Source: Tubiluchus corallicola
Taxonomy: Eukaryota; Animalia; Priapulida
NCBI GenBank assembly: GCA_030141605.1
Contig: JAQGDQ010000045.1
Coordinates: 744,001 to 808,000 of the forward strand
DNA length: 64,000 nucleotides
Direction: 5' to 3'
In this document: piece after piece, positions 13,372-58,968 of the stretch
How positions within the stretch are numbered: the first letter of the stretch is position 1
How the letters are laid out: the number at the start of each line of letters is the position of its first letter
Made by a program: the position numbers and the translations under genes
The notes under the pieces: model-generated
Database searches by the model: none
What the model was told of the DNA's origin: nothing
What the model saw: the letters and a program-made list of their open reading frames with translations, nothing else

Positions 13372-15710
13372 TTAAAATGGTGGCAAACCTGTATTTGAAT
13401 GCTGTTGTTGCTGCTTTGATTTGCTTGTTGTCGCATATAGCTGTTTCTGAAAATTTTGAAACTGTACATTGTAGGCTGGATCAGATGAGACGGGCGGATA
13501 ATACGGCTGGTTCGGATCTAATGGCTGCATTGACGAGTTTATGTGCATTGACTGCGACATCCCCGGCATATTTTGTTGCATGTGAGCTTGCACTGACATC
13601 TGAGGATCCGGCATCATAATTTTTGGGCCTGGACCTGGTCCGGTAGGAGGTAGGCCATGCTGCATTCCACCGGGCATGTGCACAGACGCCTGCATATGCT
13701 GAGTGGGCACTGCCATTCCTGGATGTGCTGCCATTCCAGGACCAGTAACCATATTTGGATTATTAGGTCCTTGCATGCCCATACCTGGATGACCGGTAAC
13801 CTGATTCGTCCCTCCTACAGGTTGCATTAGATGTTGAGATGGATCCATTGGATTCTGCACATACATACCTCCTGTTTGAGGCATTACTTCTCCTTTCATC
13901 CCAACACCAGCGGGAAAATACTGCATATTTTGTTTTGAAGTCTTCTTCTCCATGGTTCCCATTGGCGATGCAAAACGCTGAAGAAAGTCAACATTTGGAG
14001 GTCGATTGATACCCATAGTTGGCCGAGGATTTGCTGGACGGTACTGAATTGTGTTTGGTGTATTAGCTTGCACCTGTACATTGGTACCTTTGAATGGTAC
14101 AGTAGGGGTAGGTCCACGCCGACTTTGCTGTGACATGCTAGTATGCATCAAACTACCCTGGCTAGCACTAACTGTTGTATAACCACTTGGTACCTGTGGA
14201 ACACCCATTGACATTGACTGATGCATTGCCATGCCACTTTGTGCCATGGCATTAGCATGATGAGAACTAGCTGAATCGTTTGTTTGTCCGACCTGCATAT
14301 TTGCACTATATGCAGAGCCTGGAACATTTTGAATGTTCAGCTGCTGTATCGACATTGTAGCATTCACATACGTGTTGTTCACAGTTGGTGGCATATGCTG
14401 AAGTGGTTGCCGTCCAAACTGTTGAGCATCGTGAGGCACTAATTCACCTGCGATCGTTTCTGGGTTAGGTCGAGGCACTGCACTACCAGGTGGATCAAAA
14501 TGAGATAGGCGACTACCCTGTAAATACACATCTTGCCCGTGTATTAAACCTTGCTGAGATGAGATTTGAGCAGGCACATTTTGCGGAAAATTCGGATCAC
14601 CTTGCACATTAACTGTACCAGGGAGTACCCTTTGCGTAACTGGCGAACCAATTCTTTGATTCATCATACTACCGGGCAAATTTGCGTGTTGTGGCACATT
14701 AGTATGAATTAACTGACCCGACTGATCAAACTGCCCATCCCCAGGAAACATTTTTAACTGTTCATCGACGTATCCTACAGAAGTTGGCACATTTGGTTCC
14801 ATATATGCAGTATTCAACTGCTTCTGTATTGTCAACTCTTGTGAATCAAATGCACTCACATAACACATGGGCTGTGGTGACGGCACTGGTATGACATCCT
14901 TCCTAAGGTCCATGTCCTTTACTTTGTTTGCAGCTTGCACATATGCTGGTGGCTTAGGCCCATAAATGGGTTCACCGGGTAATGGACTAGGAAAATCCTG
15001 AGGGCTTCTAGGCATCATCATACCGCTTTTGTACATTCGTTCTTGCTGCAACTTGGAAAGCATTGGGTCTGGACTGTTGTAGTTTTGGTCAAGGCCACCA
15101 GGTGGTACTGGATGTCGAGGCGGGGATCCCACTCCAGGACCCCGAGGTCCGAATTCGACTGGGCTTGGAAACGATTGAGGCATATGCGGTAAAGGGAAGT
15201 GCGGTGAGGTAGGGGAGGCTCTACCATTAATACTGAGTAAACGATGTCCTAAGCTTTGATTGTAAGAAGGCGGTGGGCCAGGAGGGCCAGATACATTTTG
15301 ATTCATCAAATGGCTTGGTTGTAACTGACCTTGTACTTGAACGGGCATGCCATGCTGTGGATGACCCTGTGGTGGTAAGCCTGCTTGTGGATGTCGATGC
15401 ACATGGCCCATAGCCACTGCCTGTTTTTCACGAGCATACTGTTCTTGCAGCCGTTGCCACTCAATCTGAGCTTGATTTTGTTCTGGTGATTGAGGCTGAG
15501 CCATGCGATGAGGCGGCATGCCCATCATTGGACGCTGCTGCATACCAGCCATCATGACAGGCTGCTGCTGTGCATAGTAATTATCTGGTGGACAGCCAGA
15601 GTGCTGGACAGGCGGCTGACACTTTTCTGGAAATAAAACTTCCTGCATACGTCTTATTTTGCGAAGTTGTTCCTCCCTCCTCTGAAGGTTCTGAGGTGTG
15701 AGATTCTCTC
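13372..15710 (-). CDS. BCL9: BCL9 terminal exon: HD2, HD3 and P/Q/M/G-rich C-terminus
   Basis: 779-codon part of the 788-aa ORF; acceptor ttttag at 15711; phase 1 (G|GA). Confidence 0.95.
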
Positions 15711-18700
15711 CTAAAAGAAAATATGTTGTTATTGCCATAAAATACTCAGATGAAAAACTAAAATAATCAATACTATATACTCATTAACAAAGTGTTTTGA
15801 TTATAGAGAAGGTACAATTTGTCAAAAACACTTTTTATAAAGTATTATTAATTAGATTTATAAAATATGGCTTACTCGTAATTGGTATTTTACTAAATAG
15901 TGTCAAAAGTTCTCATTTTTCTGCAGGAATTTCTGCGATAAAGCAACGCTGATGGAAATATTAGGAAGCAAATTTCTTAATATGATTATACATGGTCATG
16001 TTTGCTTTGACGTTCATCATTAATATTATCACTTAATTTTTAATACATCCATATTACCTGCTTACATAAACAAAGCGGAAAAACTATGAAGACCATAATA
16101 ATCTGTTAGCTCAACAAATTAAAATTTTAATCATTCTAGTGCTCACAATTTTCATACAAAAAATATTGGAAACTGAGAAAATCAAAAGTAACCAAGCTAG
16201 CAATAAACTGGCTGCTAAGTTGTTTTTGTAAAAATGTAATAAGCCGCTAACACATTATAGGTGCTACATTATAGTCTTAAACCATTGCAAAGATACAAAC
16301 ACGCAATAACCAGCTGCTCACAAATGGAAACAAATCTTAAAATCAGCAAGAATAAAATTTAGATAACAAAACTATCATAACAGTAAGGAGTTGTCTCATC
16401 CAAAAACACACAAGAAAGCAAGCACCATTGCCGACTATTCCTACTTGATCTTTAAAATCAGCAAATCAGTAATTTGTACTGCTTGAAAATGCCTCTTTTT
16501 AACACAGTTAATACATTCATAAAACTGTGTGTTGTACTCGGGGTAACTAGCTGTAAACATGGCATTAAGCTGAAAATGCAAATGTACCACCACCATTAAC
16601 TATGCATGAACCTACATACCTTTTGACATAACATTACTTTCGGCAGACATTGGAGGTCCTTGATTAACACCACTTGGGCTTGAGGTAGCTCCCCACGAAC
16701 CAGGTTGATTAGGCCATTCATTACCTAACTGGTTGACTTTGTCTTGCAGCTGCTCAAGTGGTCTTGATGACCCTGTAAATATTAATGGCACCATTCTTTA
16801 TAATACTGCACCTATAATATTACATATTATATACTACGATTGTTGAATTATTCTACAAAAGATGATAGACAATTGTTCACAATGAATTTTAGAATATCAA
16901 CAGTTTAAGACAAAAAACTATACAAATTGCATGCATTTCACTTATAATCCTTAAATTCTCAATGTTAAATTTAACATGTGAGACATCAAATTGCAAAACA
17001 AATTGCTATATGGTAGTAAATACTCCATACAAGAACACTAAAATGAATGAAAAAAATTTTACATCAATAAAGAAGAAATGAAGTGTATATTAGTTCTCAC
17101 AGTTGAAATAACAAATCTGAGTTTTTACCTTATACATTAGTATATTCAAAAATATTATATTACAACTTGATAATGCCCGGAAATATGTTTTCTAAAGTTA
17201 AGCCGTAGCTGTAATAAAAATCTTTCTTTAAAAAATTCAGAAAACACGATTACTTGTCAAGCAACAGACATGGCTGTACTCTTTAGAGAAGCACTTACCT
17301 CAGCACTATAATTTACAAAACATACAAAGAGTATAAATTCATGTTTTGTTACAGGATAACAGAACAATTTCTAGACCACAACTCATTCTGACCCATGGTT
17401 TACAATACACATTTCATTACCTACAATATTACCAAGATGCTCTGATAATTACGCACTTAGACTGTAATTAACTAATGCAAGTGTAAGTTAATGATACTTC
17501 ACAACAAGGAAAAATTTTCCAATAGCAACCACGTTTATGACAGCCAAACAAGTTTCCAAAAATAAAAACATGGCAAACTTTCAAGTACAAAATTTCATTA
17601 CTGGAACAATAAAGTTAAAAGAATTAGGTTTGCACGGTAATAATCTTCTAAAGTTAATCTTCAAAACAATATTTTCTCTTTTGATATTTTATAGATGAGA
17701 TCATTTTGGGCTATGATCTTAAATTGGTTATAATTTTCCTTTAATATAACAACTGAGAAGTTACATACCGACTGGCACAGAGCATATTAGTCCAGGTTTA
17801 CTACCAGTTTGATTCATTAATGGAGTTGAGAACCTATTCCACTGCTGCATCTTCATAGGGTATTTCTAAAAAAGTATCTGCACTTTAATTGTCAAATCTT
17901 TTTTTTTCTGCGGACAGACAAGTTCATTTACGTAATGGATGACAAACAAATCGCACATGCTATAGAGAATAGACTGCTTTGCATGACAAAGGTAATCCCA
18001 AATAAAGTCCCAGAGATTTTACAAGGAAACTATGGGTCGAAGTAGCTTTGAAGTTAATTGGAAAGGTAGCAAAAATTTAAGCCTGATTTTGCAATTCTAC
18101 GATCCGTACATTTTTTTTAAATTCATAGTACATAGTTATACATGCTGCTGCCCTCCTGAAAATGTTCTTGCATAGTTATGCTGTCATAATGGAGAAAATT
18201 ATCAGTTTCAAAACATTGTTAGCTGTATAATAAAAGCCACTTTTTTATTTGAAGTGAATACAATGTACTAGTTTATTTAAACTCCAATGGAAAACGCTGT
18301 AAAAAATTGTAAACAGGGGCATGCAAAATAAAGTTTCGTGCAAGATTTCTTTGAAACTGCGACTGCTTGGCTTTACCACCAAGTGAAAGAAACAAAGTTA
18401 AAGGCAACCAGTACTTTGCCGGGGCACAGAGTCAGCAGGAGATACGAAGTAATTCATGCAAGCTTGTCTGGTACTCATTACTGAACGCTTTATTGGACGC
18501 TATCCAAATTTTTATTGCAAGCCTTATTAATAATTACAATTAGATATTAATTATATAAAATATGGTGCATGTATAATAATAATAATCAAACTTTTATATG
18601 ATAACTTCGTGTTAAGGGTCAGTTAATTAATTGTTGGCTTTGTCTACCTTAACGTAACAACAAGGCACTGTTCATGTGAAATACAATTCGGAAGGTTGCA

Positions 18701-21700
18701 GGCTGCATTCTCAAATTACTTAGGCACTTTTCTTTGTGTATTTACAACTTGTTGCAATAAATAATGATAATTGCCTTACTGTTTACAGTTTTCCAAAATT
18801 GGGTGAACCCAAAAACGGTGTTGTCGCCTCCTGTATAGCCTACTTGGCTTTTTCTTTAACTACCACACCAAAATAAAAATCATCTTTCTTCTACAAAGTC
18901 TCATGTCTAGAATTTCATGCTAAAAATTTTGCCCCGTTTATGACATATTGTATGGAATGAGTACAGACGTAGTGGAAATAATTTTTGCGGATGTAAAACA
19001 TGCAGATAGAAAACTCTGAGTGTGTGCGTGCCTGTGCAGACGCAGTGGAAATGCCGTAGGGCCCCATAGATAAGCAAAAACCAAATCCTGTTGATATATC
19101 AGTTCAGAAGGTTAATTATAAGCTGACCTGTAACGTCATAATGCTTAAAAACAAACAGGAAAATATCATATAATTTCCAATGTCCCAGAAAAAACGTGAG
19201 GTTAACCTCCAATTTCCTATATTTAGATAGTTTGAAACATTGAAAAAAAAACAATAAACTGACCTCATAATCTTATTTGTACATTTGTACTACATTAAGA
19301 CCACTCATTTTGATGAAAACAACAAAATATACTTATTTCATTTTCTGGTAGCCGATTAAACAAAATTCAACACTGTATAAACAAAATTCAACACTGTATA
19401 AACAAAATTCAACATTTCACCTGTACAGCACATCTTTATTACTTGGTTTTCATGTTTTAAATTACACGTGAATTTTGCCTACAAATTACACTTGAAATTT
19501 ACCTGCAAGAAGTTTTTAGTTAGAGGCTGTGCACAATGAAAAGCAATTATTGATGGATAAACCGACTGCATCACAAGCTCGGCAGCCTTGTTAGCCATTT
19601 GTGTTGTGAAAACAAATATTTGACTCTGTTGTTGCATATATTGGGGATCTGTCGAAGATTTCGCTGTATTATTCATAGCCTGCAAGAAAACAAAAACAAT
19701 GCAACTACGACACTACAAAAGAACAAACTAAAAATACAAGCCAAATTATGTTTCAGTTTTGCTTTTGTGTAAAAGTCACATTTACATCGGCCTATAGAGG
19801 ACCATACACATATAACAATACCAAGTTCAGGGTAGGCAGGTGACAGAAAATGTGACGCACTATAATGCAAGGTAGGTAAGTGATTTTGTCATAAAATATC
19901 GTTATCAAGAGTTGGAACAAGGAATGGCTGGCTGTAATCGGCCGTGAGGAGGAGGAATCTGCAGAATGGATCGATGAGAATGCGTTCAAGTGAATTACGG
20001 CTGCCACCGACTGCACTGCTGATGCCAGTAGAATCCACTGATGGTTTCCTTTAATTAACACAAATGATGCTGTTGCCTGTCTTTGGGAGGAGGTAAGGAT
20101 AAAATGTAGAAAAAGCTACATCGGCCGTGTGATATCAATTTCAATACAAGGGACAGGTAGGTGGTGAGGCATATGATAACGTCATTATAATACAAGGTAA
20201 GGTTGCTTATAATACAAACTTGCTATCGTTATATGTGGATGGCCTCCAGACAGAAGATGGGTATATAGAAAACGAGTATGTAGGCTAAATAGGGCATGCA
20301 TGACAAAACCAAGCTACTATAACATTAAGTTCTCATTTAATGACGCCTCAGTAGTGACGAGTCGTTTCTGAAAGATGTTACATTTTAGTCATAAATTGTA
20401 TTTCATTCTACATCTGTGGCAGGAAGCCCGACATGTGGCATGTGCATTGTACATATGCCTATTATGACATTTGTTGAATGCTGGTGCACGACGAAGAACT
20501 TCATTTGTATAAAAGCAATGAACGTCGAGAACTGCATTCTCGAGAATTATAAAATGACAATCCAAGCATTTTCTGTTTTTTTTAATAAGCTACTACTAAA
20601 TGAAGTGTACAAAGTCTAATAATTATTGATTCAAAGATTTTTCAAAAACCATTGTGAACAAACCTGTGGCGTGTTCGCCGTTTGATTTTTCCCACTATTT
20701 TGCCTCTGTACTTTTGTAGATGAAACATTAACTTGTGATGGAGTCTGTGGTGTTGACACTAACATTTTAAGATCTAAATTCTTTTTATCGTCATTTCCGC
20801 TTGAAGGCTGACCTGCACATATAAAAATATCCACAAGTGTAATATAATGATTACAATACATGATCCAATGTAACGTTTGTAATACAATATAATGGTATAA
20901 TGATCCTATAGTAGAAATGTTTGCACAATACATGATAATCATCCATTACAACAAAATGTATATACGCTATAAATACATTTAGGAAAAATGTTGACAAGGA
21001 AAAAGCTAGTACATGTTAACTCTGTTTAATTTTTTGGTTTAAATAAATAGGTCTATTGTGATTTGCATATTTACGCTAATATTGTCTGAATATTTATTTA
21101 CAAAATTGTTATAGTTTTCGTTACAAAACACTAAAATGTGAACTATAAACCACGTTTTTTGAAGAAATTAACAGTACTGAATTAACAAGGACTTTTCTTT
21201 TAGCTTAGCACACTAATACATCTACTGCTTTGGTAAATGCTTTTATTGTTACTATGGTTATTGCCATAAATAAAGACTAAGATATGACGATGATCTATTA
21301 AACGAAGGCGCTATCATAACTTATTCACGTGCTTTATTTAAGTCCATTATTCAATGAATAATGTTGTCGGCCTCGTCACCGTCTTAATCTGTGATGAGCA
21401 GGCAATCACAACAACAAGGAAGAAGGCAAGGAATATTAAGATGAAGTCTCATAATGTTATTAAGATAATAATAAAGCCAGCTGATAATCAAACTAAACAA
21501 ATGGAAATTAACGGTGAAAAAGTATGAGCAAATCTGCAATACCCTGTGATTGTGGTGTAGCTGGTGTACTGGGCATTATTTGACCAACAGATGGTAAACC
21601 AACATCTCCACTGTCTGACACCTCTTTCTTTATATCATCAGACTTAACAACTGTAGAGTCATCAGTTTCACTATTACTAGCACCTGGCTTCTTGACAATT

Positions 21701-23949
21701 TTTGTCATTGCTTCAACTCGTTCGCGCTTCGACAACTTATTATTTTCTATAAAACCTTTCTGATCCTTGGCTCCTTCTTTTGCCTAAAAACAGAAAATGA
21801 AACAGAATTAGACATAACACTATTTTAGCAGCACTACTGCGATAAAAAACAACACTAAATAATGAATTCAATTAGTGAATGAGTTATGGTTTCTACAACT
21901 GGGCTTTTCAATAATAAAGCAAAATGCTACAGTCCCAGCATTTCAATACTTCTTCAAAACAGTTCTTTTTCAAAATATTTTATACTAGCTATGTACTGTT
22001 TGTCATAATTTTGGCAAGTTTATTTTGAAAGACAGGGGCAAAACTGACCCTTTAAAAAATAACTCAAAATTTTAATTATAAATGTGTTATTGGTAGGCAG
22101 CGTGCTGAACATTTATCAGAGTTTGCCTGTCTGTCCATGTAATATTCAAGAAAATCTTGAACATACTTTAACCAAATTTACCAGAAAGACTGACCAGATT
22201 TAGGTGATAATTTATTTGACAATACCAAAGAAATCAACATTTGCTGATTACTAGTTTCATGGAAGGGCTCTAATTCTATCTGTCCTACTAGTTTCATGGA
22301 AGGGCTCTAATTCTATCTGTCCAAGATGTTTATCTTAAGGAGTTATGGATAGATTACAATGACAAAAGGGCTACAATCAAAGAAAAGCTGACTATATTTT
22401 GAGATGAATGGCCATCTGAAAATAACTTAATTGAATTATCATGGATGTCTACGTGATGTCATAAGAGAGTGCTGTAGAAAACTTCCAAAAACAAGCAAAG
22501 AATCCCAAAGAACAATTACTGCCATACACACTATACATTTTTTATTTTGCCAAGTCTTAAAAGTTTAAAACGTTAGGGTGATGCTCACTATGCCTAACAA
22601 GTTATTGACAATTTTTGGTCAAGGGACTCTACCCAAATCTCTACTCATCTGGAAGTTGTTTTTGTTGTTAGGAAAGAGCTTTTGAAAAAAAGGCTTAAGA
22701 CTCTGTGAACTCGCAGCGGATCTTCCTGAAACTTTATACTAGAACAATTTCCACATTGATTGGCAAATAGCATTTTCCATCTGCCATTTTGAATACGAAA
22801 TTGCGACACCATTTTCGAAAAAAGTCTAAGGCTCCGCCAATTTGCAACAAATCGGCACGAAAAATAGGAATATACTAGAATGAATTCTGCATCGATTAAT
22901 TTGAACTTCAATTTGCCATCTTAAATTCAAAACAGTGACAGTTCAAGTTGAATTTACTCAATATCATAATTAGTTGAGTCTAAAAAATATAACTACCTTC
23001 AACTGAGGTTCTATCACTGGAAAAAGTGTTTCATTCACGTATGCGAATAAATCCTTCTCTGCCGGACACGTGCTGTTCTGATACTGCTTGAGAAAGTTTT
23101 GCCAGTGCAGCAGCGTGGAACATATACACTCAAAGTCTCTCTTTACTGGCTTCTTTGACGTATTTTCCTTAAACAGTTTTAATTCTGCAACACAAAGTTC
23201 AATAATTTAGTAATAATCAAATTATAAAAAAAGAGTAAGAAAGGTAAATGAAATAAAAACTCACTCGCAAATGAATTGCCAAGTAAAATTTATTAAAGCA
23301 TTCAGCAGATTCTCCGATATGAAACATTTATACTTTCTACTGTAAAAGGGTGTACAATACATGAAAATTTAATGAAGAGCTTTACAATGAAATCGCTGAT
23401 ATCAATGTAAATATTTAAAGGAGAAGCGGACGATTGTGTAGATATTAGTTCAAAATAAAGTATGCTCTAAAATATAGAAAATTACAACAGCTTATTTTAC
23501 ATCAAAGCTTAGATTAAATAATAATTACTTCTGAATGTTAAATTTTGTTAAACCTACGTGCAGCTCAGCGAACATACTAAGACTGGCAATGGAGCCTTTT
23601 TGTCACATTTGTCATATATGAGCAATAGCAATCTTCGCTTAAGCAGACGTGTTTGACGTGCAGGGAAGATGCCTACCATTGCACAAGCTGTGGTTAGTTT
23701 GTGGCATAAGCGACAGCTGTGTTCAGTTGCCTTTTCATTAACTTTCCAAGCTAATTATTCAAATACTAGAAACAACTGCTAGCGTTTATAGGTAAGAAAA
23801 TGTATATTTTGAGCAGCAAATTAAAATGACATATGTCTAATCAGTCGTATAGTTTTTCTTTATTTCACTAGCTAATCACTAAAAAACCTCACATAGTAAT
23901 ACAGTGTAATAATGATAGTGATAATTATGTTTAATAATGATGATGATGG

Positions 23950-23989
<40 letters not shown>

Positions 23990-25902
23990 AATAATAATAA
24001 TAATAACAGGCTATTAAAATGATACAAAACACGTAATGCACTACATATTATAAGTGCAGAGTACATAACATTTGAAATGAAAATAAAAAAAATCTGGTTT
24101 GCTTAGCTCTAAATATGAACTTTCTTTAAACACACAAACAGTGATGAGCTGAACAATTATTCAAAAGTCCAGGTGCTTAAATTATGAAGATAAGAATACT
24201 ATGCAGGTAGTATATTCACTTGTTAGATGCTTCCCTTGAAAACATGCTGGACAATAATGTAAATTAAGAATTTTTTCAGAAAAACTTATATAAAGGAATC
24301 AATATACACTTAATAGGTTGACCGTAACATAACTTGCAAATGACAGGCAAGTTGAAGCAACAGATTAAGAACTGGGCACCCAACCATAACCATAACTTGA
24401 AAATCAGGAATTGCATCTATTTACACTTTTGAGAAGCAAGTAATTATACATAATTTCATCAGTACAATCCTCCGTCTGTCCTAAATACAAAATTTCACGT
24501 ATGGCAGGTGATTGTTGACACTAAATAGAAGGAGCTATATAGGCAATATTTAAAATGCTTTTTAGTCAATTACTTAGTAATTTCAGTTATCCTACAATGT
24601 CACTTAACCTCTTAAGTTGTTTTAAAAAATGTAATGAGCACTTTTAGTGCATCTGAAGTAAAATACAGCTCTATGATAATAAAAGCCCAACACTTAAAAT
24701 TATGATATTAACATTATTTCTTTTACTACTTTTGTGCCATATTTTTCTGGGTCTGTATGCTGATGTGCATTTTATAATATTATTTTACTTGCACATCGAA
24801 ATAAAAATAAAAATGTAAAATTCTAAGTTATTAACTTATTGTGCAGAAAGTAAATCTTTTTAGGGACCAAACTGAATGCATAATTCACGCATAAACTTAG
24901 TTCACGAAATGGAATATTTCAGCCTTTTTTTCAATTCAGTTAATCAGTTACAAGAAACTCTTTAGAAATTAAAAAATGTTGAAACATCTAACTTAGTTAA
25001 TACTGTAAATCCTTTATAAAATACTAAACTAAACACTTCAGCAGAAATATTTTTGTACTCACTCATTGCAATTTGTAAAGCTAATCAAACATTTACCAAA
25101 ACTTGAAGAACATAATTTATGAACTTTTATGATCATATCATGAACTTTGCAATTCAAGATAATTTTTTTTGGTAAATAATTCACACAATCGATGTTTTAC
25201 ATTCATATCCGCAGAATTAGTACGTTGGTGAGAAAATCACATTCCTAATATTTTTCTACATTTATATACATACTTTTTTCTATACAAGTACATATACAAG
25301 AAAATAAATTTTTCCTAGAAAAAGCTAAAGACGTCGCAATAAATAAACTATGCACTTACCATTATACCAGTACTTATTATTAAAAGCATCCTGACCAATC
25401 ACCATACCATAATACTAGAAAAAAGAGCAATTTAGAATATTTAAGGAACATTATATAAAGTGTTGAAGAAATTATAAATTTTTGATAGAATCCTATCATA
25501 TATTAATCAGAATGAATCTATCAAGCTAATTTAAAACTAATCTACTTTTATACCAACTGATATACATTTTTCATTGCTCTGCATTGTTCAGATTATAAAG
25601 CCAGAACAATTATTCACCAGCATTGTACTGTTCACAAGTTACACAAAACTTAATGTTTATAAGCAAAGAGCTGTAGGATAGATTGTAGAATCTATTCAAA
25701 AACACTGATTCAGAAAATCCTAAAATTTATTCTTTTTGAAATCTATGGTAATTTACACAGTAGGCTAGACAGTAATGCGACTACCATAAAGAAAATAAAG
25801 AGTTACTAATTGGGAAATCAAATGCTTTGCATTAAAAAGTACTAAAAATGCACAAACTCACAAGATGTAGTTTATGAATTGTATTACTCAGAAACATACC
25901 AT
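13372..25902 (-). CDS. BCL9: BCL9/legless Wnt-beta-catenin coactivator with an N-terminal WHIM2/WHIM3 module (9 coding exons, about 1133 aa)
   Basis: complement(join(13372..15710,16620..16772,17769..17865,19503..19679,20664..20812,21543..21783,22997..23184,25360..25414,25900..25902)) = 3402 nt, all GT-AG with matching phases. Motifs: HD1 (IFVFTTQMANKAAE...SIIAFH), HD2 (LTPQNLQRREEQLRKIRRMQEVLFPE), HD3 (QIEWQRLQEQYAREK), protostome Legless blocks PVPSPQ..AFDSQELTIQKQLN, PNTIQY and FQNFQKQLYAT. Confidence 0.9.
16620..16772 (-). CDS. BCL9: BCL9 coding exon 8
   Basis: tttacag|GG TCA...AAA G|gtatgt; open frame, phase 1/1. Confidence 0.85.
17769..17865 (-). CDS. BCL9: BCL9 coding exon 7
   Basis: ttttag|AAA TAC CCT (KYPMKMQQWNRF...) GTC G|gtatgt; phase 0/1 bridges the flanking exons. 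Confidence 0.85.
19357..19414. repeat. 21-bp tandem repeat, about 2.7 copies
   Basis: Unit TAAACAAAATTCAACACTGTA. Confidence 0.85.
19503..19679 (-). CDS. BCL9: BCL9 coding exon 6, HD1 (Pygopus-binding)
   Basis: QQQSQIFVFTTQMANKAAELV...SIIAFHCAQPLTKNFLQ; cttgcag acceptor, gtaaat donor. Confidence 0.95.
20664..20812 (-). CDS. BCL9: BCL9 coding exon 5
   Basis: gtgcag|GT CAG...CCA CAG|gtttgt; phase 1/0; S/T/Q-rich. Confidence 0.8.
21543..21783 (-). CDS. BCL9: BCL9 coding exon 4
   Basis: tttttag|GCA AAA GAA...CAG G|gtattg; phase 0/1; open frame. Confidence 0.8.
22249..22322. repeat. Perfect 37-bp tandem duplication
   Basis: TACTAGTTTCATGGAAGGGCTCTAATTCTATCTGTCC x2. Confidence 0.9.
22997..23184 (-). 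CDS. BCL9: Coding exon 3: WHIM3-like motif
   Basis: gttgcag|AA TTA...TTG AAG|gtagtt; translates as LKLFKENTSKKPVKRDFECICSTLLHWQNFLKQYQNSTCPAEKDLFAYVNETLFPVIEPQLK; phase 1/0. Confidence 0.8.
23932..24006. repeat. (GAT)n(AAT)n microsatellite
   Basis: Seen directly; explains the poly-S/L ORF 23872..24066. Confidence 0.95.
25360..25414 (-). CDS. BCL9: Coding exon 2: WHIM2-like GxD motif
   Basis: ttttttctag|TAT...AAT G|gtaagt; translates as YYGMVIGQDAFNNKYWYN; phase 0/1. Confidence 0.8.
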
Positions 25903-26045
25903 TTTCAATACCGAGCACGCTTAGCACAGATGGCATATACAAGTTTTCTTGCTAACTGAGATCTCATGAAGTATGTTTGTAAAAGTGAAGTTCCACTTCC
26001 TCCACCGGCCTTCAGACTCCTTAAATGCCCATCTTCTGGGTGGTC
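25900..26045 (-). other. BCL9: Mostly untranslated exon ending in the putative BCL9 start codon
   Basis: GAAAATG|gtatgt at 25902-25900, in-frame TAA 7 codons upstream, T-rich acceptor ttttttgag at about 26046. Confidence 0.6.
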
Positions 26046-36405: not shown

Positions 36406-36725
36406 ACCTACATCCTACCTATACCATTTGCGACTGCATTATAGCTGTTCCAGCTGCAAAAAAGATCTGCATCTAAAGGCTAACTATACCAAACTACAAA
36501 AAACCAAAAGGTGAAATGTGCAAGATAAAAAGTATGGGCCCTACAAACGAAAGCTTGTCAAAAAAACCTACATCCTACCTATACCATTTGCGACTGCATT
36601 ATAGCTGTTCCAGCTGCAAAAAAGATCTGCATCTAAAGGCTAACTATACCAAACTACAAAAAACCAAAAGGTGAAATGTGCAAGATAAAAAGTATGGGCC
36701 CTACAAACGAAAGCTTGTCAAAAAA
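36406..36725. repeat. Perfect 160-bp tandem duplication
   Basis: 36406..36565 is identical to 36566..36725 by eye. Confidence 0.95.
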
Positions 36726-44573: not shown

Positions 44574-44960
44574 TCAACAGCGAGTTTTGTTGGAACATGT
44601 TTCTTTGGATTTACGACAATCTGAGATCGCTCTTTTTGCATTTCTCTTGCATTTTCCCGTGCTTTTACTGTTCTTAATGACAACAGCATCATCCTGCTTG
44701 GTCTTAAGTTCTTTCTTCTTTTTATTAAACATTAAACCATCTGTGACAGGCATTGACGTGTCTGTACTAAATAATTTTGGCAAACAAGAGCCATCGTTAT
44801 CTGCTTTATCTGACGATATACTTTGGGTCCGCTCTTGTTTAGACTTTTTCTTCAATTCATCCATTTTCTTTGAGAAGTAGTCCTGTAAGGACATTGTCGA
44901 GGTAAAAAGGGGCTCGTTTCTCTCTTCTTCAAGAGAAGCAGAATCAGCACTGTTAACTTC
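44574..44960 (-). CDS. PINX1: PINX1 exon 5 (K-rich C-terminus)
   Basis: ttttttag|GAA GTT...; contains SLQDYFSKKM; TGA at 44574. Confidence 0.88.
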   Translation of the reverse strand, partial: EVNSADSASLEEERNEPLFTSTMSLQDYFSKKMDELKKKSKQERTQSISSDKADNDGSCLPKLFSTDTSMPVTDGLMFNKKKKELKTKQDDAVVIKNSKSTGKCKRNAKRAISDCRKSKETCSNKTRC

Positions 44961-47900
44961 CTAAAAAAAGCAAAGCAAATGAATGTGAGACTGTTTCTCA
45001 AAAAAAGATCAACAAAAAAAGTGTTCAGGGTAACAGGGCTAATTATCACTTGACTATGCCTGGTCTAGTATGTGTGAGATGATTCAGTAAGGTAATGCAG
45101 AGAATCACTAGCTTAACAGTTGTACACACAATTTGTTTAGATTGATAAGCTAGGCTTAACAGGAAGAGATAAACTTCTTTTGACTTTTTAGTTAAACTCA
45201 ATGCGGCTCTAAATCACATTATGTTATAAATTGCAACACCTGTTAGCTTGCGTCACATGCGTGGGTACACGAATATTACATTATAGAGAAAGTTCTTCAC
45301 GTTAAAGGTAAACCACTGAAGCCAGGTCTTCATCTGAGCAGTTTCACCTGGATATTAGGCCACTCAGTAGAGAGTGGTTTTCTGTCTTAAACAGATGTAT
45401 GTTTACAGGTCAAATACTTTTCATCTCATATCCTGTGCTCCCAGAGTTCTGATGCATGTCTCACAGCCCTAAGGAGATGCTAGCAATCACAGAAAGATGT
45501 AACGGTATAACACATCTTATGCTATTACTGTCATAAGTCATCAACTGTTAAATGCTATTTGGTGAGTCAGCACGACAGGGATGATAGACTATAAATTAGT
45601 CAAATTCACTTGAGGAGTGAGATGGTTTGTTTCTATCGGAACCGGTTATCGACACATAGATGTTTAACCTGCTGGAAACGTTGTCGGTGAGACACTGTCA
45701 TACAAACATCTGTAAGCTGTGACTGTCAGTGTAGACTATCTTATTGAAAGTGAACATTCAGCAGAACAAGGGTACCTCGCCAATATTCTGTGGAACAGGT
45801 TTTCCTTTTTTGTACATTAATGCTCACTGTCATTTTTTTTTAATATTTGTAATCCTATTAAATTAGTTGCTACATGTCATTAAATAGTACCTTTCTTGTT
45901 TATTATGAATTAGGTAAAATGTCATTAACAGAAGAAAGAAAACAACCCATTTTTTTTATAAAACTATGAACAGAATATTTATTCTGTTTATAAAATTAGC
46001 ATAAATAATCAGCTCAACATCTTTCGGCGCAAGCTACATCAAAACTGGTTTTCGAGTATCAACAATAAATAACTTAGCAGCAAGCACACATTGTGACCAC
46101 TCAGCTACTTTTTTCCATTGTTGGGTCATTAATTTTATCATACTGAAGGCTTCAACAAGTGGTACTGCAGCAACTACTGTACTGCTATAAGTTCAATGTG
46201 CATCATGACAGCAAAAAAACTAGATCGAGTGGGCATGAAAGGCTTGAGGAATTTAAATGGAGTAGTCATCTCCAGGCTCTTCAAGGTAAATGAACACACT
46301 GCACCATCAACAACCTCTTACCGTGGAATACTCCGAACCGACTTAAATACAGTATACAACAATGAAGAGTGCAAAGGCAGACAACTTCTCTGGAGAATGT
46401 TCCACTTTTTTGCAAAATACACAAAATTCTAGTTAATATTTAGAGTATCCTAAGAATGAAGTTAACATACCTGAGAATCTAGCTGCACAGTTGAGTTCAT
46501 CAAAGATGGACGATTCCCTAATATGCACGCTATGTCATTTCTGGTAGCTAATGACAAATCTTTCCCTCGGGTGAACTTGTGATAACTGTTACAAAAACAC
46601 CAATATGTTATACATGGATATGGTTAAAAAAGCTTACTAAGTACTAATTAGAATATATTTCATTAATATATATATACTAAACTATTTGCAATTTTAATTA
46701 GGCACTTTGCGAGAAATATATATAGGATAGCATAACACATATACCACTTGGTACAACTGTGTAACTTAGGTGATCATATATCATGTAACAATTAAAAATT
46801 TATGTATGAAGGTTTGGTCACAAGGTTCTATATATTGTACATCATGTCTGTAAACTATATAGGACCTAAAAGGTATTTTGCTTTTCACTTCAGCAGTTTC
46901 TAAGTTATCACATCATATATTACCAACACCCAAACCTTCACTAAATGTGACACACTTGCTTTACTGTAGTACATTATGTTACAAACGGGTCAAAGTTGCC
47001 TCAATGGCAAAAGATTGCTGAAACATGTCACAGTGTCGTGAAACATAATTTAATTCCACAGTACAAGTAACACTTACTGCACACGTCTTTTAGATGTTTT
47101 TGACTGCTTCTCTAAACTTCTAACTCGCTGTTTTGCAGTTTTCACATTCGTACTTGTTGAATGTGTTTGATTCAAGTCATCTAGTAACTTGTTAAAGTCA
47201 TCCTGGTGTGCAATCCACTTATCTTCATCATTTACCGTAAACCCAACACCTAGCGTTATTAGAAAGAAAAATCACGTACAGATTCTGAAAATTTGACATA
47301 AGTTAATTATTGTTTTATAAAGCAACTTTATGCAACAGACATGAAGGAACAGCTATTGCTATCAGCTCTTGTTAAATCAACATATGCAAACATATAATAC
47401 ATACATACACTAATGTTTCCATTGGGTATGTGGGTACACATTACCTGTATTGTTTATTACCCGAGCTTAATATCTCTACCCAGTTAATGAAAATGCAGAC
47501 ATTATTTGTACCCATTGTTAGAGAATTTAAAATTTAAATGCTATCTTCTGCTGTGTGCTTTTACAGTAGGTACATACTAGCAAACTATTAAATGCTGTTG
47601 CATTGGTAGTGCAACAGGCCAACATCCAGTAGGGACATGGCAGATCAAACCATTTTGCTGTAGGCATGACTTACAAAAAACAAGCTATAATTTACTTACC
47701 AAGAGGTTAATTATCCAAATGAAATTTATTATCAACTTTTAGAAATCTACTTCAGGCCGCTAACAAGGATAAATGGATAGTAAAGTTTAATAGCACGTAA
47801 AAAAGATAATATAGATTACTTTATTCCCCTAATCCCCATGCTGTATTAATAGTGCTCAGTGTGGTACTATCTAGGTTGACGTAGCTGACTCATTGATAAA

Positions 47901-50900
47901 GTGTGCAGAGAAGTAATTAAGGTCTAACAGATAAAACTCAGTCAAATGAATTGTGTCGGGAAAACACTAAGCTTTGCAACTCACAGCTTGTGTGTTCATG
48001 CTTTCAGAGTGTAATAAATTAATGCCTGTTGTTAACATAACAGTGTAGTTAGTTAAAATACACCAGTTGTTGTTTTTATTTATGAACATAAATGATTACA
48101 GTTTCTTTACTGCCGCTGAATCTTAACAATCGGGTGCCCAGGTACCTGACGGGTATAAAGAACAGGGTAGCTGAGTCTGACTTTTGCTGTCCGTGCAAAC
48201 ACTAACATACATGTGAATTTACAATGTAACATAGCAAAAATGTCATATATGCTGATTTTTCAGCAGTTATTACCTTTATTATCTTCTTTCATATCTAACC
48301 TAACAAAATCAGGATTGCCATCTTCATTTGCGCCTAGTCCTTTGCCTTTGGTCCATCCCATTCCTTTGAGCATCCGTTCACCAATTTTATTGGTGTCTAA
48401 AATATAGAACACTGTTCAAAGACAAATCTAATACAACTATAAATACAGCCATTGGCCGAGTGGTTAGATAGCATTTCAAAAGTATATGGTCACACTCTAT
48501 GTGACTAGATATATATAAAAAATGTAATATTTAGATAAAAAAAATCAACCTGGTTTTTGGACAGAGGTGATTACAATCTTAGTGATAAAGAATAACAGAC
48601 AATAGCAGCAAAATTCTTGAGCAGCTGGACTATCATGCCAAGACATTTAAGCAATACATTACTAACTGGGCAACTTTATTTATACACAAAGAAAATAAAG
48701 GCATAAAATGATTAGGTGAATCATGTGTTCCAGACACATGGAACTAAGGTTGGCCATTGAATGGAAAATTTCGAATTTGTGTAGAATACATGCAATTAAT
48801 TTTAAAATGTTTTGAACAGAATTTTAATCGAATAAAAACTTACATTATTGATTTAAAGTAAGAAATTGACTAATAAATTATTAATAATGATTTCCGATTT
48901 GTTACTGTAGAAAAGTTAGCAGCATTTTTATAGTTTCAAAAATAATGTAAAGATGTAAATTTAGGCCTACTGCTAGCTGATCATCTGTTTAACCTGTTCG
49001 TTAGAATAAATTGTGCTACTACTTGTAAATTTTCGATTTCAAAAAATATCAAATTTAAAAGTTCAACTTATTTAAGCCCTATCTGGATTCGAGGTATTCT
49101 TTCTGCAATTTTGTAGCTTTTAAACAAGCACAAGATTGTGAAATTTGTTCAAGGATTACCAGATGAATGCAAACTTTTCTGCCTTTTATTACACTAAATT
49201 AAGGCATTTACAATCGACAAACAAGATAACATTGCCTGATCAGTAACAACAATGTGATTTCCTTATGACAATCAGGCAACACAATTCTATGAATTTTTCG
49301 AATGTGGGACGCAGTCGAATCAAATGTTTTTAAAGGAAAACCATTTGCAGTTCTACAGCAACAGTATGATAAGTTTAAAAGCTGGAATCCATCGAGATTT
49401 TTAAGACTGCAATCGTTCTTATTTACTGAACAACAATGTCAAGTCACACACGAAATCTGCATGTCAGAGTGGGACAAATATTTAAAGTCTATTTTCAAGT
49501 AGATATTATTTGTAGTGTTCTTTAATATTATTATTATTATTTTGTAATACGTATTGCATAACTGTGATTTATTTGTGTTTAACCCAATAAGTTGAAATGT
49601 AAGTATGATACAGAACGAGTCTAGAAGTCTAGCACCGATTATTTTTCTAAACAGGTCTGATACTATGTCAAAGACTTCAGAAGTACAGTTCCCGAAAATC
49701 GAGCAGCATCGACTACGATGAGTGCCAGCTACTTTTTTTCTTACTTGTATGCCAGTCAAATAAAACATTAGTACTTAACAGATTTAGTAACCAGAACAAT
49801 TTTACACACCTCACCAAAAACCACTAGCCTAAAACATTGAAACATTATAGAGTTCATAATTCTTTTCAATTACAATTACAACAAAATTCGGTTCAGCTTT
49901 GGTCTGATATTTCAATTCTAACTTAATATTTCATTCAGAATTCAGTTCGGTAGCACAGCCAATCGTTCAGTTAAGCTTCAGCTTCGTGGCACCCAAGCAT
50001 AAAAAATCGGCTTGGGTTTGGTTGGTGAAAATGTGCCTTTGGTGCACTTCTAGGCAGCTCATGTACATTCAACTTGTTAGATGCTTTAAATGACCCTGAC
50101 TGGAAATTGAACAAGTTTGGAATACAGATGTGATATATAATGACCCTCAGAAGTATTTGAGGTTCCCCTTAAAAAAACCTCTTTTGAAACTGCAGTGTTT
50201 TTTATATTTACTTGGTAACATCTTGGTAAGGATTCAAGATTTTTTACCACTTCAGTTGCGGTATGTAATAATCAACTCTAATAAGTCGCCCGATGTTGTT
50301 ATAAAGAGCGGAATGCACGGGCCTTTGTTATTTCTTATCTGCGCCAATGACTTACTTGACAAACTAACATCAACAGTCAAAATGTTTGCTGCTGACATGA
50401 AGATATGTAAAAATATAGCCAGTTCATGGTCGTACACACTCCGGCCAGATATATCAGTCATGGATGCATGATCCAGAAAGTGGAAAATGTCATTGAAGAC
50501 AAACAAGTGTATGTAAAACTACATCTAGGGAACAACCAAGTCAAATTTAACTATATCGTGAGTGATATAACGCAAACTAAGTATCAAGGGGATCTCGGGG
50601 TACGTGTGGATAACAAGTTATCATTCAACCAACATCTGATGGTCACCAAGAAACAAAGAAAAAATATTTGGTTAATTAAAAGAACTTTTGGTTTCTTTTC
50701 ATTTCTCTAGACCCTCTAGACCTTTCCGATTCCGTATAAAACATTTGTCTGTCCTATTCTTGCTCTTCTTGACTACAGAGATGTCGTATGGAATCCATCC
50801 AGATTCCAGACTGAATGCAATCGGGAAAGTGGAATCTATGCAACGTAGAGCTATAAAAATAGTTCCTGTCATGAGACATATAACATGTTCAGAACAGATG

Positions 50901-52927
50901 AGGAGTTGGGAACCCCTTAATGACATTTTAAAGGAAGAATTAATTAAATTTTGAATTATTTATTTCGAAATCTAGTCCATAAAATACAAATATATAAATA
51001 TATATACATACAAGGATATAAAATACTACGAAAACTAATTTAAGAAAATATTTGCAGCATAATTACATGGATATTATTACACTTATTTACAAACAAAATC
51101 CTTCTCCATTTGTTAAAAATATAAGAATTCATACTATATCAGAATTTAAAATATATTGTGTTAAAATGTTACCAGAGCAATCTAGAATCGACTTTTAAAA
51201 GATTAAAATGCTACTAGAGCAATCTAGAATCGACTTTTAAAAAAACAGCTTTTCAGATAATTACTCCAAAGTGCTGAAGAGAGGCGATCTGATGCTGATG
51301 TTTCGTATGAGTTAGTATTTCAATAACAATCCACGAGGTAGAGGAGCTGGATATAAAGTTACTAAACCCAGATGCAAAAACAGATTTATGTTCAGTTTGA
51401 AGGAAGCAATTTGACCAATATACTGTTTAAAGGAGAGACTGTTATCAATTGACATACCAATCACACAATCAACTTCATGCAAAACATGATCTTCTATGTT
51501 AGGGTTTTCACTAATCATAATTACGATAAATTCCATCTGATTTATTGTGCCCCAGCTTCAATACTAAAAATTTACAGAATGAAATTCAAGCTTAATCCAG
51601 GATAAAATCGTTAGTGAGCACGCAAAATATGGAAATGCCACAAAATCTTGAATAGTAAAATCAGTGCATTATAACATAGTTTTGGGTCCTTTACACGTGA
51701 GGCTACCAACATTAAAGCAAAAGCTAAGTCTCTCGGAAAGTTCTGCATAATCTAATATTTGAGAAAAAAAGAAGTCTCAGCAATGAAACTGTGATAAGCG
51801 CCTCATGTAATTAATAATTTCAATTTGAGATCACGATCACTTCACGCTTGGGGGTGCTCATTTTGGTGCAAAATGTTGTCATCTGGTTACCGTGCAATAT
51901 ACACAGTTATTCTGCCAAGTGCTTCAGCAATCTTTTTTTTGACTTATAGAGCGAACTCTATAAACTAAGTAACCCACCTGGTATCCTACTGTTAAGTGGC
52001 CATAAAACAGATATAGAAAGTTAGAAGATAACACTTAAATTCAGACAAGAAAAATATCTTTATTAACTGAGCACTTTACACCAAACTCGCCGTTTTGCTA
52101 TCCTAGCATGAACTTTACATCTGGCGCATTGCGCCATCTATTAGTGTTCATACAAAACATGCAACACCTACTATACGCTTGCAAGTTTACACATGTATCT
52201 GAAAGTCAACAAAAATCTGTAAATTAATTACACTTGCACAATTACTACTTACACATTTTACAGTATAATCCTGTCGGTAAAGGCTATTAACCACTTTAAT
52301 ATTGGTCGTGATTGATCAAATGACTAATTTTTACATAAACACAGTTATAATACAATGCTATAATAACTGAATTTCTGAGTGAACTGTAGAAATTTCTCAA
52401 CGTGTACCTTAGTAACAGCTGGTCTTCACAGCACTAACGCTGCCCAGCAGTCACCAGCATACGCCACTTTTTTCAAATATGAAGACAGCAACGTTTGTTT
52501 GGCGGGAGATAAAAAATATTTAAATTTCTTTTACATTTTTAAGCAAAGCATTCTATGCGCATATCTTGTGTGGCGATTTCAATACTTTTAACTGCATATT
52601 AAAATGCAATAAATGTTGTTCGAGGGTTGGTTCTCCGCTTAATGCCAAAACAATGATTGATAGGTAGCTGCAAAGGTGAGTTTATCCTAGAATTTTACTG
52701 TTAGTTTTCAAACACCTCTGAAATTTAAAAAAATGTGTGTATTCATTTGCCACATCTATGAATCCGTGCATTCTGCCACTTCCTAATGCGAGCATGCAGT
52801 TATATTTGATATTTAAAATTATATTTATACTATAGTACTAGTACTACCAACTACCATTCAGCCAAGCTGTGTTCCTCGGATCTTTTGAAAACCGCCTTTT
52901 TATCTTCTTTTCGGCAAGCATCGCCAT
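44574..52927 (-). CDS. PINX1: PIN2/TERF1-interacting telomerase inhibitor 1 (G-patch protein; Pxr1/Gno1 homolog), 5 exons, 289 aa
   Basis: complement(join(44574..44960,46471..46585,47078..47249,48274..48396,52855..52927)) = 870 nt with consistent phases. Motifs: MAMLAEKK...DPRNTAW, G-patch KIGERMLKGMGWTKGKGLG, WIAHQDDFNKLL, RVHYHKFTRGKDLS, SLQDYFSKKM. Confidence 0.95.
46471..46585 (-). CDS. PINX1: PINX1 exon 4
   Basis: YHKFTRGKDLSLATRNDIACILG; phase 2/0. Confidence 0.92.
47078..47249 (-). CDS. PINX1: PINX1 exon 3
   Basis: GVGFTVNDEDKWIAHQDDFNKLLDDLN...SLEKQSKTSKRRV; phase 1/2. Confidence 0.93.
48274..48396 (-). CDS. PINX1: PINX1 exon 2 (G-patch)
   Basis: DTNKIGERMLKGMGWTKGKGLGANEDG; phase 1/1. 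Confidence 0.95.
50240..50955 (+). mobile_element. Frameshifted CR1-type LINE reverse-transcriptase fragment in PINX1 intron 1
   Basis: Across three ORFs: GPLLFLICANDL, KMFAADMKI (eroded FADD), DLGVRVDNKLSFNQH, IKRTF, KVESMQRRAIKIVP. Confidence 0.88.
51161..51242. repeat. 42-bp tandem duplication
   Basis: TTAAAATGYTACYAGAGCAATCTAGAATCGACTTTTAAAA x2. Confidence 0.85.
51290..51720 (-). mobile_element. Second, more decayed CR1-type RT fragment in opposite orientation
   Basis: Minus frames give LEFHS..VLKLGHN, IGMSIDNSLSFKQYI and LLLKY, echoing CR1 RT C-terminal motifs. Confidence 0.6.
52855..52927 (-). CDS. PINX1: PINX1 exon 1
   Basis: MAMLAEKKIKRRFSKDPRNTAWLN then G|gtagtt. Confidence 0.93.
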
Positions 52928-55155: not shown

Positions 55156-56409
55156 TCATTTGTCAAAATTTGTTAGTGGCGGAACTTTGGCAACTTCAAA
55201 GAATACTTTATGAGAATATTTGGTTCTTACAGTTTTCAATGACTTAGCCATAGATGTCTGAAATGACAGCATACTGTTTAATTTTTTAGCCAATGGCATT
55301 AGTTCATTCTCTGTGTATCCCGTATAGTATTCCATTGTGTTTCCCCAACTTTTACAAGATTTCATTTTCATGGCTAAAAACAAAGATGAAGCTGCCATTT
55401 CACTCTCTAAATAATCTATTAGGTCATATTCTTGCAATGATAGCTCAAGAATATAACGTCCCAGTGTTAAAAGTTCCATGTTGGCTTTTGCACACTTGGC
55501 ATATCGTCGCAGGAAACGATATGAACTTGGAATGCCAAGATCGAAATCCAGAATACGTAATAACGACATTTCCATATTCAGCAGATCTCGTTTGTTGTAA
55601 GCATCATCGCAGATATACAGAAAATCATCAACAAGAGGCGGGCAGCGCTCATCAAATTTACATGCTACAAATAATGCCGTTGATCCAACTAACTGCAATT
55701 GCTCCTTCTTTATGACTGTTTGCGATAAATAAAGATCAAGTATTTTCACAGCCAAATAAAGTGTTTCATGATTTAACTCAAAGTTCTCCTGAACCTCCAC
55801 CATCCAGTCAACTAGAATAGCTCTCATTGTCTTATTAACTTCTCCTTGCTCGTCCATGTACTTTTTGATAACAAAATTTGACTCTCTAAGTTTGTAATAC
55901 TCGAAGATATCAAAAGCGTACTCTGGTACATGAAAAACATCGTTCTTCATTTCCTCATCAATATAATAATCAGGTTTTATCTTTTCTTGTGTTTTCGGCT
56001 TCCACGATTCATCTCTGCTCAACATATGTTCAATAAAGTTGTCGTCAGAATCAGAGGAACTCTTCTGACTTAGTCTTAAACACAAAGATTCTGAATTTTC
56101 ATCAGATGACTGTGATGATCGGAGGACGGGTAACGTATTAGCGTTACCACCAACAACTGATTGGTTTTTCTGGTTCAATTCACGTTTATCTTGTAACACA
56201 TGCTTCTTTTTTCGTGTAGGATTAACAAGCACTTTCTTGTTTGGCTCTTTTTTCGTGTTAAATTTTGCATTTGTCAAATCATCAAATGCTGATCGCTTTT
56301 TAGGTATTCTTTCTGGTGAGTTCTCTGCTGATCTTTTGCATTGCAGGACACAATTGTTTTTGTCAGGTGCATTTAACCGCCCTCGGTGAATCGCTTTCAT
56401 GTCCCCCAT
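55156..56409 (-). CDS. CCNB3: G2/mitotic-specific cyclin B3, single coding exon, 417 aa
   Basis: D-box RSAFDDLTN, cyclin box MRAILVDWMVEVQENFELNHETLYLAVK, KFDERCPPLVDDFLYICDDAY, SYRFLRRY and C-terminal KYSHKVFFEVAK are B3-type motifs. Confidence 0.97.
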   Translation of the reverse strand: MGDMKAIHRGRLNAPDKNNCVLQCKRSAENSPERIPKKRSAFDDLTNAKFNTKKEPNKKVLVNPTRKKKHVLQDKRELNQKNQSVVGGNANTLPVLRSSQSSDENSESLCLRLSQKSSSDSDDNFIEHMLSRDESWKPKTQEKIKPDYYIDEEMKNDVFHVPEYAFDIFEYYKLRESNFVIKKYMDEQGEVNKTMRAILVDWMVEVQENFELNHETLYLAVKILDLYLSQTVIKKEQLQLVGSTALFVACKFDERCPPLVDDFLYICDDAYNKRDLLNMEMSLLRILDFDLGIPSSYRFLRRYAKCAKANMELLTLGRYILELSLQEYDLIDYLESEMAASSLFLAMKMKSCKSWGNTMEYYTGYTENELMPLAKKLNSMLSFQTSMAKSLKTVRTKYSHKVFFEVAKVPPLTNFDK

Positions 56410-56527
56410 TGTCTAATCGCCGATTTTAACTGCAAATCTGCCAGTCTAAACACTTAAAATAATAAAAGCCCGGTACTGTTAAATAAGTAGTTGTCGCAAG
56501 CACAAATTATTTATAATTATGAATCAA

Positions 56528-58425: not shown

Positions 58426-58968
58426 TAAAAGTAAAGTAAAGTAAAGTAAAGTAAAGTAAAGTAAAGTAAAGTAAAGTAAAGTAAAGTAAAGTAAAGTAAA
58501 GTAAAGTAAAGTAAAGTAAAGTAAAGTAAAGTAAAGTAAAGTAAAGTAAAGTAAAGTAAAGTAAAGTAAAGTAAAGTAAAGTAAAGTAAAGTAAAGTAAA
58601 GTAAAGTAAAGTAAAGTAAAGTAAAGTAAAGTAAAGTAAAGTAAAGTAAAGTAAAGTAAAGTAAAGTAAAGTAAAGTAAAAGTAAAGTAAAGTAAAGTAA
58701 AGTAAAGTAAAGTAAAGTAAAGTAAAGTAAAGTAAAGTAAAGTAAAGTAAAGTAAAGTAAAGTAAAGTAAAGTAAAGTAAAGTAAAGTAAAGTAAAGTAA
58801 AGTAAAGTAAAGTAAAGTAAAGTAAAGTAAAGTAAAGTAAAGTAAAGTAAAGTAAAGTAAAGTAAAGTAAAGTAAAGTAAAGTAAAGTAAAGTAAAGTAA
58901 AGTAAAGTAAAGTAAAGTAAAGTAAAGTAAAGTAAAGTAAAGTAAAGTAAAGTAAAGTATAGTAAAGC
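58426..58968. repeat. (GTAAA)n pentanucleotide array, more than 100 copies
   Basis: Near-perfect array with one extra A at about 58681. Confidence 0.99.

Follow-up and report, generated by a model that had tools for sequence, protein, structure and literature searches.

What is known of BCL9, or Legless in flies, comes from flies and vertebrates, where it is a mostly disordered adaptor protein and a cancer target. The available text of PMC5352222 and PMC10287724 describes it as the adaptor that links Pygopus to β-catenin in the Wnt enhanceosome, in both fly and human. Accessory subunits of the ISWI nucleosome slider share a different architecture, the DDT-WHIM module, and in published models its DDT, WHIM1 and WHIM2 elements touch SLIDE at its tip (PMC12093815 and PMC8536118, in their available parts). 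BCL9 is not among the human ISWI subunits in the accessible part of the list given by PMC8567610. Here we describe a BCL9/Legless gene of the priapulid Tubiluchus corallicola, carried on the minus strand of a 64,000-nucleotide stretch (contig JAQGDQ010000045.1, positions 744,001 to 808,000, hereafter the window, whose numbering is used throughout). Its product starts with a WHIM2+WHIM3-like unit. We consider it probable that an ancestral DDT-WHIM1-WHIM2-WHIM3 module, still whole in BCL9 of many invertebrates and predicted to grip the tip of the ISWI SLIDE domain, survives here as its rear half. The exons, their common frame and the HD1 and HD2 blocks are present in the window, and the module stands at the N-terminus of BCL9 in five phyla.

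The joined coding sequence comprises 3402 nt and 1133 residues, with a single stop, at its end. It is composed of the following exons:

25900..26045, minus strand: candidate first coding exon, made up mainly of 5′ leader that contains short upstream open reading frames (ORFs); only the start ATG (25902-25900) is coding.
25360..25414, minus strand: exon 2, forming a WHIM2-like hairpin in which the GxD signature (GQD) precedes an aromatic strand (YWY); 18.9 bits in the relatives' profile search.
22997..23184, minus strand: exon 3, end of WHIM2, then a WHIM3-like strand and two helices; 76.7 bits in the relatives' profile search.
21543..21783, minus strand: exon 4, charged helix and start of a low-complexity linker; 3′ junction spanned by a contig of run X2.
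20664..20812, minus strand: exon 5, linker; one X2 contig spans both junctions.
19503..19679, minus strand: exon 6, HD1, which binds Pygopus in known BCL9.
17769..17865, minus strand: exon 7, end of the HD1 block and linker.
16620..16772, minus strand: exon 8, linker, based on splice sites and phase only.
13372..15710, minus strand: exon 9, HD2, which binds β-catenin in known BCL9, then a Pro/Gln/Met-rich region, a conserved C-terminal block and the stop.

The start ATG is immediately followed by a GT donor, and an in-frame stop is located 7 codons 5′ of it. The candidate first exon is predicted from sequence and its acceptor at 26046 is an uncommon GAG; a second in-frame ATG lies inside exon 2, at 25405-25403. 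Exons 2 (55 nt) and 3 (188 nt) are bordered by AG acceptors and GT donors, and are in phase with each other and with exons 4 to 9. The introns of the gene contain high-copy repeats at 23412-23830 and 19880-20224, likely small mobile elements. Contig depths at 23164-24131 add up to thousands, and joints are numerous at 19886-20224.

The BCL9 identity of the protein is carried by three blocks. The last exon matches PF11502, the HD2 helix, at 31.2 bits (cut-off 25). Upstream of HD2 stands HD1, 54-73% identical to protostome HD1; the tick HD1 in turn matches the Legless/BCL9 HD1 chains 3zpv and 2vpe of the PDB. The C-terminal block shares 45-58% identity with the C-termini of arthropod BCL9, with E values of 1e-10 to 1e-5 in a set of 17 proteins. 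Arthropods provide the nearest matches to HD1 and the C-terminus, and HD2 is about equally close to annelid and chelicerate sequences. By analogy with the family, the window protein would bind Pygopus and β-catenin.

The sequence-only reading of the window had proposed that the two small exons have clean splice sites and join in phase to BCL9, and the sequence comparisons bear this out. Joined, the first 85 residues scored 99.6 bits against a profile of 12 relatives from which the window row was left out. With the same profile, exon 2 alone scored 20.2 bits, exon 3 alone 73.2 bits and the reversed sequence -0.3 bits, and the best shuffle reached 11.6 bits (1987 scored of 2000 made). The window is identical at 20 of the 32 alignment columns conserved to at least 80%, and exon 3 matched tick BCL9 by tblastn with an E value of 1e-13. 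Pfam WSD gave no match for exon 3 scanned alone. The 3′ border of exon 3 also looks conserved: a Val residue (GTN codon, consistent with a read-through donor) stands there in 7 of 7 short database ORFs that extend beyond it, whose identity as BCL9 is not established. In run X2, which is RNA-like and about 5% diverged, one contig bridges the introns 21541-20810 and 20664-19679. No X2 contig fell on exons 2 and 3 or upstream of them at 88% or 80% likeness, which counts neither way, so the 22997/21783 junction rests on frame and homology. By these sequence comparisons, the two small exons are confirmed as genuine coding exons of the BCL9 gene.

Related proteins were collected by several searches, and matches were named by cluster look-up. 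With HD1 as query, 15 proteins were obtained. In four tick-type entries, the two exons are matched, at 68-69 bits, by the rear part of an N-terminal stretch of about 230 residues. Searching with this tick N-terminal region gave 8 matches, and a full HMMER search with exon 3 gave 19; two of the latter, P0032 (phage tape measure) and P0034 (KIND repeats), were set aside as spurious. Exon 3 found no match in a word-index search. The module was found in Tachypleus (two genes), Limulus, Centruroides, Nymphon, Strigamia, Liolophura, Owenia, Tubulanus, two Branchiostoma and two Hymenolepis species. Among 16 named proteins compared, it was present in 13 and absent from all three insect proteins. The profile was built from most of the 13 carriers, so that their own profile scores are circular; blastp with the window segment recovered the same 13.

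Module, HD1 and HD2 occur in one protein in Rhipicephalus, Tachypleus (two genes), Limulus, Centruroides, Liolophura, Owenia, Tubulanus and Branchiostoma belcheri. By group, the carriers include a tick, horseshoe crabs, a scorpion, a sea spider, a chiton, an annelid, a nemertean and amphioxus. In Nymphon the module precedes HD1 only. The tapeworm proteins P0018 and P0019 (Hymenolepis) have an N-terminal module and a weak HD1, with no PF11502 match; on sequence grounds they are probably unrecognised, diverged flatworm BCL9. Two Logan contigs, which we infer to be transcripts, each hold the module and the HD blocks in a single uninterrupted ORF (P0013, 1761 residues in 6082 nt; P0024, 1686 residues in 7036 nt). 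The window module is about 45-52% identical to most relatives (chelicerate, chiton, annelid), a level near that of HD1.

These observations bear on a highly improbable alternative, in which the two exons belong to a gene of their own, are pseudo-exons or form a lineage-specific chimera of recent origin. It could appeal to two fragment entries, from Strigamia (128 residues) and Branchiostoma lanceolatum (479 residues), which hold the module without HD1 or HD2. Against it stand the in-phase joining into one open frame, the same order repeated in five phyla and in the single long ORFs of the Logan contigs, and the HD1-like level of identity. The idea of a chimeric or lineage-specific scaffold, put forward from the window alone, thus has to be abandoned, since BCL9 of chelicerates, a mollusc, an annelid, a nemertean and amphioxus opens with the same unit. 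It occurs in four protostome phyla, or five if the tapeworms are counted, and in a cephalochordate, which is most simply explained by one fusion at or before the bilaterian ancestor; the N-terminal module would then be ancestral to bilaterian BCL9.

In the relatives, DDT-like and WHIM1-like helices precede the WHIM2+WHIM3-like unit. Over 13 aligned members, the four commonest Pfam families were KIAA2026_hel (5), DDT (4), WHIM1 (4) and WSD (4), in the expected order and, among the matches listed, all below cut-off. Neighbours of the module in an atlas search were WHIM1/DDT, RSF1-like and WSD clusters at 0.87-0.80, which are leads only; exon 3 alone retrieved only unnamed clusters, at 0.80 or below. 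Among the subunit families, the module may be closest to CECR2/RSF1. The AlphaFold model of the Tachypleus module (predicted local distance difference test, pLDDT, 80; predicted template-modelling score, pTM, 0.55) shows a helical front half followed by a four-stranded sheet and two helices. It aligned to yeast Ioc3 with Z 9.4 over 210 residues (root-mean-square deviation, rmsd, 15.3) and with Z 7.7 over 228 residues (rmsd 17.1). A fold like that of an ISWI accessory subunit is suggested by this model for the full module of the relatives, not decisively. Foldseek returned nothing at E 0.001 or better for the full-module and isolated-WSD models, and a profile search of PDB sequences with the module gave only GPR4 (E 0.4-0.6). 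The isolated WSD of a relative (model m6477de0832f1) was predicted with pLDDT 88 as a compact four-strand sheet with two helices. No clear fold match was obtained for it (best Z 5.4), and Ioc3 was not among the 50 matches listed. Part of this model also resembled PH/EVH1 folds and PipX (Z about 5).

The motif order of the relatives, the atlas neighbours and the Ioc3 likeness support the proposal that the product of the two exons is a WHIM2+WHIM3 (WSD)-like unit attached to BCL9. What that proposal had overlooked is that this unit appears, from the relatives' sequences, to be the rear half of a complete DDT-WHIM1-WHIM2-WHIM3 module. The signature GxD of WHIM2 is described in the available part of PMC11789628.

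Residues 13-135 of the Tachypleus model (mbef2115f0d6b) superpose on calponin-homology domains (Ndc80/Hec1, augmin and others) with Z 7-9 and an rmsd of about 3. The front helical bundle could on this basis be a calponin-homology domain that binds microtubules or actin, a reading to which we give hardly any credence: the sequence signals favour DDT/WHIM1, the clean alignments stop near residue 135 and leave the β-sheet half unexplained, and the front bundle is absent from the window. The superposition may reflect an unnoticed link between the DDT+WHIM1-like bundle and the calponin-homology fold.

The Tachypleus module was modelled with an ISWI fragment from locus L054 containing HAND, Myb/SANT and SLIDE domains according to Pfam. 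The complex scored 0.85 in three runs, compared with 0.10 for the best of three controls. The runs share at least 94% of their contacts, with a partner pLDDT of at least 85 and 35-37 confident contacts. In calibration, 71 of 105 solved eukaryotic pairs passed the score mark, against 2 of 126 unrelated ones; for microbial pairs the figures were 51 of 78 (solved) and 2 of 108 (mismatched). In an older test, no distant cousin of a true partner passed (0 of 84). The contacts join the tip of SLIDE (229-232, 265-277) to module residues 20-31, 130-148, 161, 163, 173 and 174. On the module side they fall on DDT helix 1 and the stretch before WHIM2. They agree with the Itc1/ACF1 models in the available part of PMC12093815 and with the models in that of PMC8536118. 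The full module of the relatives is thus predicted to dock on the SLIDE tip of ISWI.

Several points weigh against the reading of the module as a DDT-WHIM ISWI subunit, half of which is left in the window. The Pfam DDT, WHIM1 and WSD matches of the relatives all fall below the curated cut-off (best among the matches listed, 17.5 of 22, 16 of 19.1 and 17.3 of 25.4 bits). The alignment to Ioc3 has an rmsd of 15-17 Å, and calponin-homology chains score equally (Z 7-9.7). The Ioc3-Isw1 complex is already solved, so the complex score may reflect likeness, and the modelled complex pairs a horseshoe-crab module with the ISWI of another animal. At the 19 contact positions, conservation is on a par with the module average (0.59 against 0.58, p 0.46). 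Of 14 further proteins, 3 have a WSD match; the 11 without it are 3 insects and 8 chelicerate-type predictions. Those predictions that were inspected start downstream of the module, and the insect absences (n = 3) could therefore partly be a matter of annotation. Finally, the upstream pieces of the tapeworm module scored 17.6, 2.6 and -0.3 bits, so that at such divergence only one of three stands above background.

The lack of special conservation at the contact positions fits a module derived from a DDT-WHIM ISWI subunit and repurposed in BCL9 for another partner or for contact with DNA or the nucleosome, the predicted ISWI binding then reflecting family likeness. The survival of the WSD half without DDT in the window would also fit, as would the PH/EVH1 likeness of the isolated WSD model and the fact that flies and humans run Wnt transcription with a BCL9 without the module (three insect proteins here; vertebrates to our knowledge). 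We regard such repurposing as unlikely. The complex scored 0.85 with its confident contacts at the canonical SLIDE tip, distant cousins did not pass in the older test, and residues Q27, R147 and W161 of the predicted interface are kept in 7 of 8, 8 of 9 and 8 of 9 relatives, respectively.

The front half of the module appears to be missing from the priapulid gene. No DDT or WHIM1 exon was found in the 64 kb by tblastn, phmmer, profile search or segment scans in all six frames, which brought up exons 2 and 3 and nothing else; exons that are highly diverged or missing from the assembly could escape these searches. In leave-one-out controls, the upstream pieces of 8 of 9 held-out relatives scored 12-56 bits, and the best other window peptide 4.0-5.5 bits. 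In the segment scans, each of the eight upstream segments scored lower in the window than in the weakest relative. At 35243 a DDT-helix look-alike (16.8, against 40 for the weakest relative) was put down to chance, as was a weak match across the 26046 acceptor. The window protein begins at the equivalent of Tachypleus residue 145, and 12 of the 19 predicted contact positions, located upstream of this start, have no counterpart in it. The conserved D-L-R just before WHIM2, whose Leu-Arg (146-147) is a predicted contact, is substituted in the window copy.

A full DDT-WHIM module that binds ISWI as in the relatives might yet be encoded by front exons that are too diverged, too short or unassembled, and some features of the locus lend themselves to this. 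About 18.5 kb separate the candidate first exon from the end, at 44574, of what is presumably a PinX1-like gene. The first exon supplies only an ATG, with an uncommon acceptor, and tapeworm-level divergence would hide two of three upstream pieces. Moreover, the intron before exon 2 is close to the point where two Centruroides gene models diverge, and for this reason an ancestral coding exon probably stood upstream. We nonetheless doubt that the window gene has a full module. Exon 3 scores 77-83 bits, similar to Tubulanus and Branchiostoma, whose upstream pieces score 12-46 bits, and no other window peptide exceeds 5.5 bits; the segment scans and the replaced D-L-R point the same way.

The window gene thus appears to have lost the front half of the module, which carries most of the predicted ISWI contacts. 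The remaining WSD part is likely still functional, because it is 45-52% identical to most relatives and a relative's copy was modelled as compact on its own; it is likely under selection and would fold alone. The short form would bind ISWI weakly or not at all. The suggestion that this protein might couple β-catenin/Pygopus to ISWI is plausible, given the Tachypleus complex.

If the module is a genuine ISWI-docking unit, BCL9 of the bilaterian ancestor would itself have been an ISWI subunit. Located at TCF enhancers through Pygopus (HD1) and β-catenin (HD2), it would tether the nucleosome slider there. Insects and vertebrates would have lost the whole module, and the window animal, by losing DDT and WHIM1 and keeping WSD, would represent an intermediate stage of the loss. 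Whether BCL9 served the bilaterian ancestor as a dedicated ISWI accessory subunit, and still does so in chelicerates, molluscs, annelids, nemerteans and amphioxus, with both model lineages having lost the module and the window half-lost it, seems to us evenly balanced. Should it be so, Wnt-responsive enhancers had a hard-wired nucleosome remodeller that was lost in the model species, and the Wnt enhanceosome of most animals would have its own nucleosome-sliding motor. If most other bilaterians carry the fusion, an unlisted ISWI complex exists. Judging by the title of Liu et al. (2008), ISWI/ACF1 reportedly acts at Wingless targets, a role for which the BCL9 module would offer a physical route. 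The proposal is open to direct tests in spiders, annelids or amphioxus, or with fly Legless to which the module has been added.

What we believe to be new is an ISWI-subunit-like module on invertebrate BCL9, apparently unannotated, ancestral rather than chimeric, and shortened in the window copy. The architecture is not widely annotated: databases give only PF11502 for these proteins, under names such as 'uncharacterized' or 'BCL9 homolog'. No report of BCL9 with a DDT-WHIM or ISWI-docking module was found in the literature searched, which omits most subscription papers, supplements and Aravind and Iyer (2012); the latter is said to have defined the WHIM motifs and could list a BCL9 fusion. 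In the available text of PMC5352222, the words 'ISWI', 'SMARCA5' and 'invertebrate' occur 0 times, and PMC12419801 names BCL9 only among its references.

Other features of the window were as follows. Upstream of BCL9 on the same strand, a G-patch gene occupies 44574-48400 (minus; PF01585, 41 bits); from its motifs we take it to be the PinX1-like gene mentioned above. An uninterrupted ORF of 418 codons at 55156-56412 (minus) contains Cyclin_N and Cyclin_C and is presumably of B-type-like subtype; intronless among intron-rich genes, it is possibly a retrocopy. A 5-base tandem array of about 109 copies lies at 58428-58972, a perfect 160-base duplication at 36406-36725 and a 211-base duplication at 60260-60681. 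Short frames at 50100-50954 and 62858-63280 (plus) have no Pfam match and, we assume, resemble decayed pieces of LINE (long interspersed nuclear element) retrotransposons.

Three known systems can be set beside this locus. The Paramecium proteins ICOPa/b bind ISWI1 and show only a distant WSD match, according to the available part of PMC11789628, and are thus a precedent for sub-threshold WSD proteins such as the BCL9 module. They differ from BCL9 in serving genome editing in ciliates, in a modelled ISWI contact made by a separate helix pair and in having no requirement for GxD (PMC11789628, same part). With the DDT-WHIM ISWI subunits (ACF1/BAZ1A, BAZ1B/WSTF, BAZ2A/B, BPTF, RSF1, CECR2, Ioc3, Itc1; also KIAA2026), the relatives' module shares an apparent motif order, the GxD signature, a suggested Ioc3-like fold and the predicted docking on the SLIDE tip. 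It differs in scoring below every Pfam cut-off and in being joined to Wnt adaptor helices and not to PHD or bromodomains, and the window protein differs further in apparently lacking DDT and WHIM1 while keeping WHIM2 and WHIM3. We know of no human or fly BCL9 protein with the N-terminal module. BCL9/BCL9L and Drosophila Legless (PF11502) have HD1, HD2 and the conserved C-terminal block in common with the window protein, in the same order; to these the window protein adds an N-terminal WHIM2+WHIM3-like domain, predicted to be folded, and its relatives add the full DDT-WHIM module.

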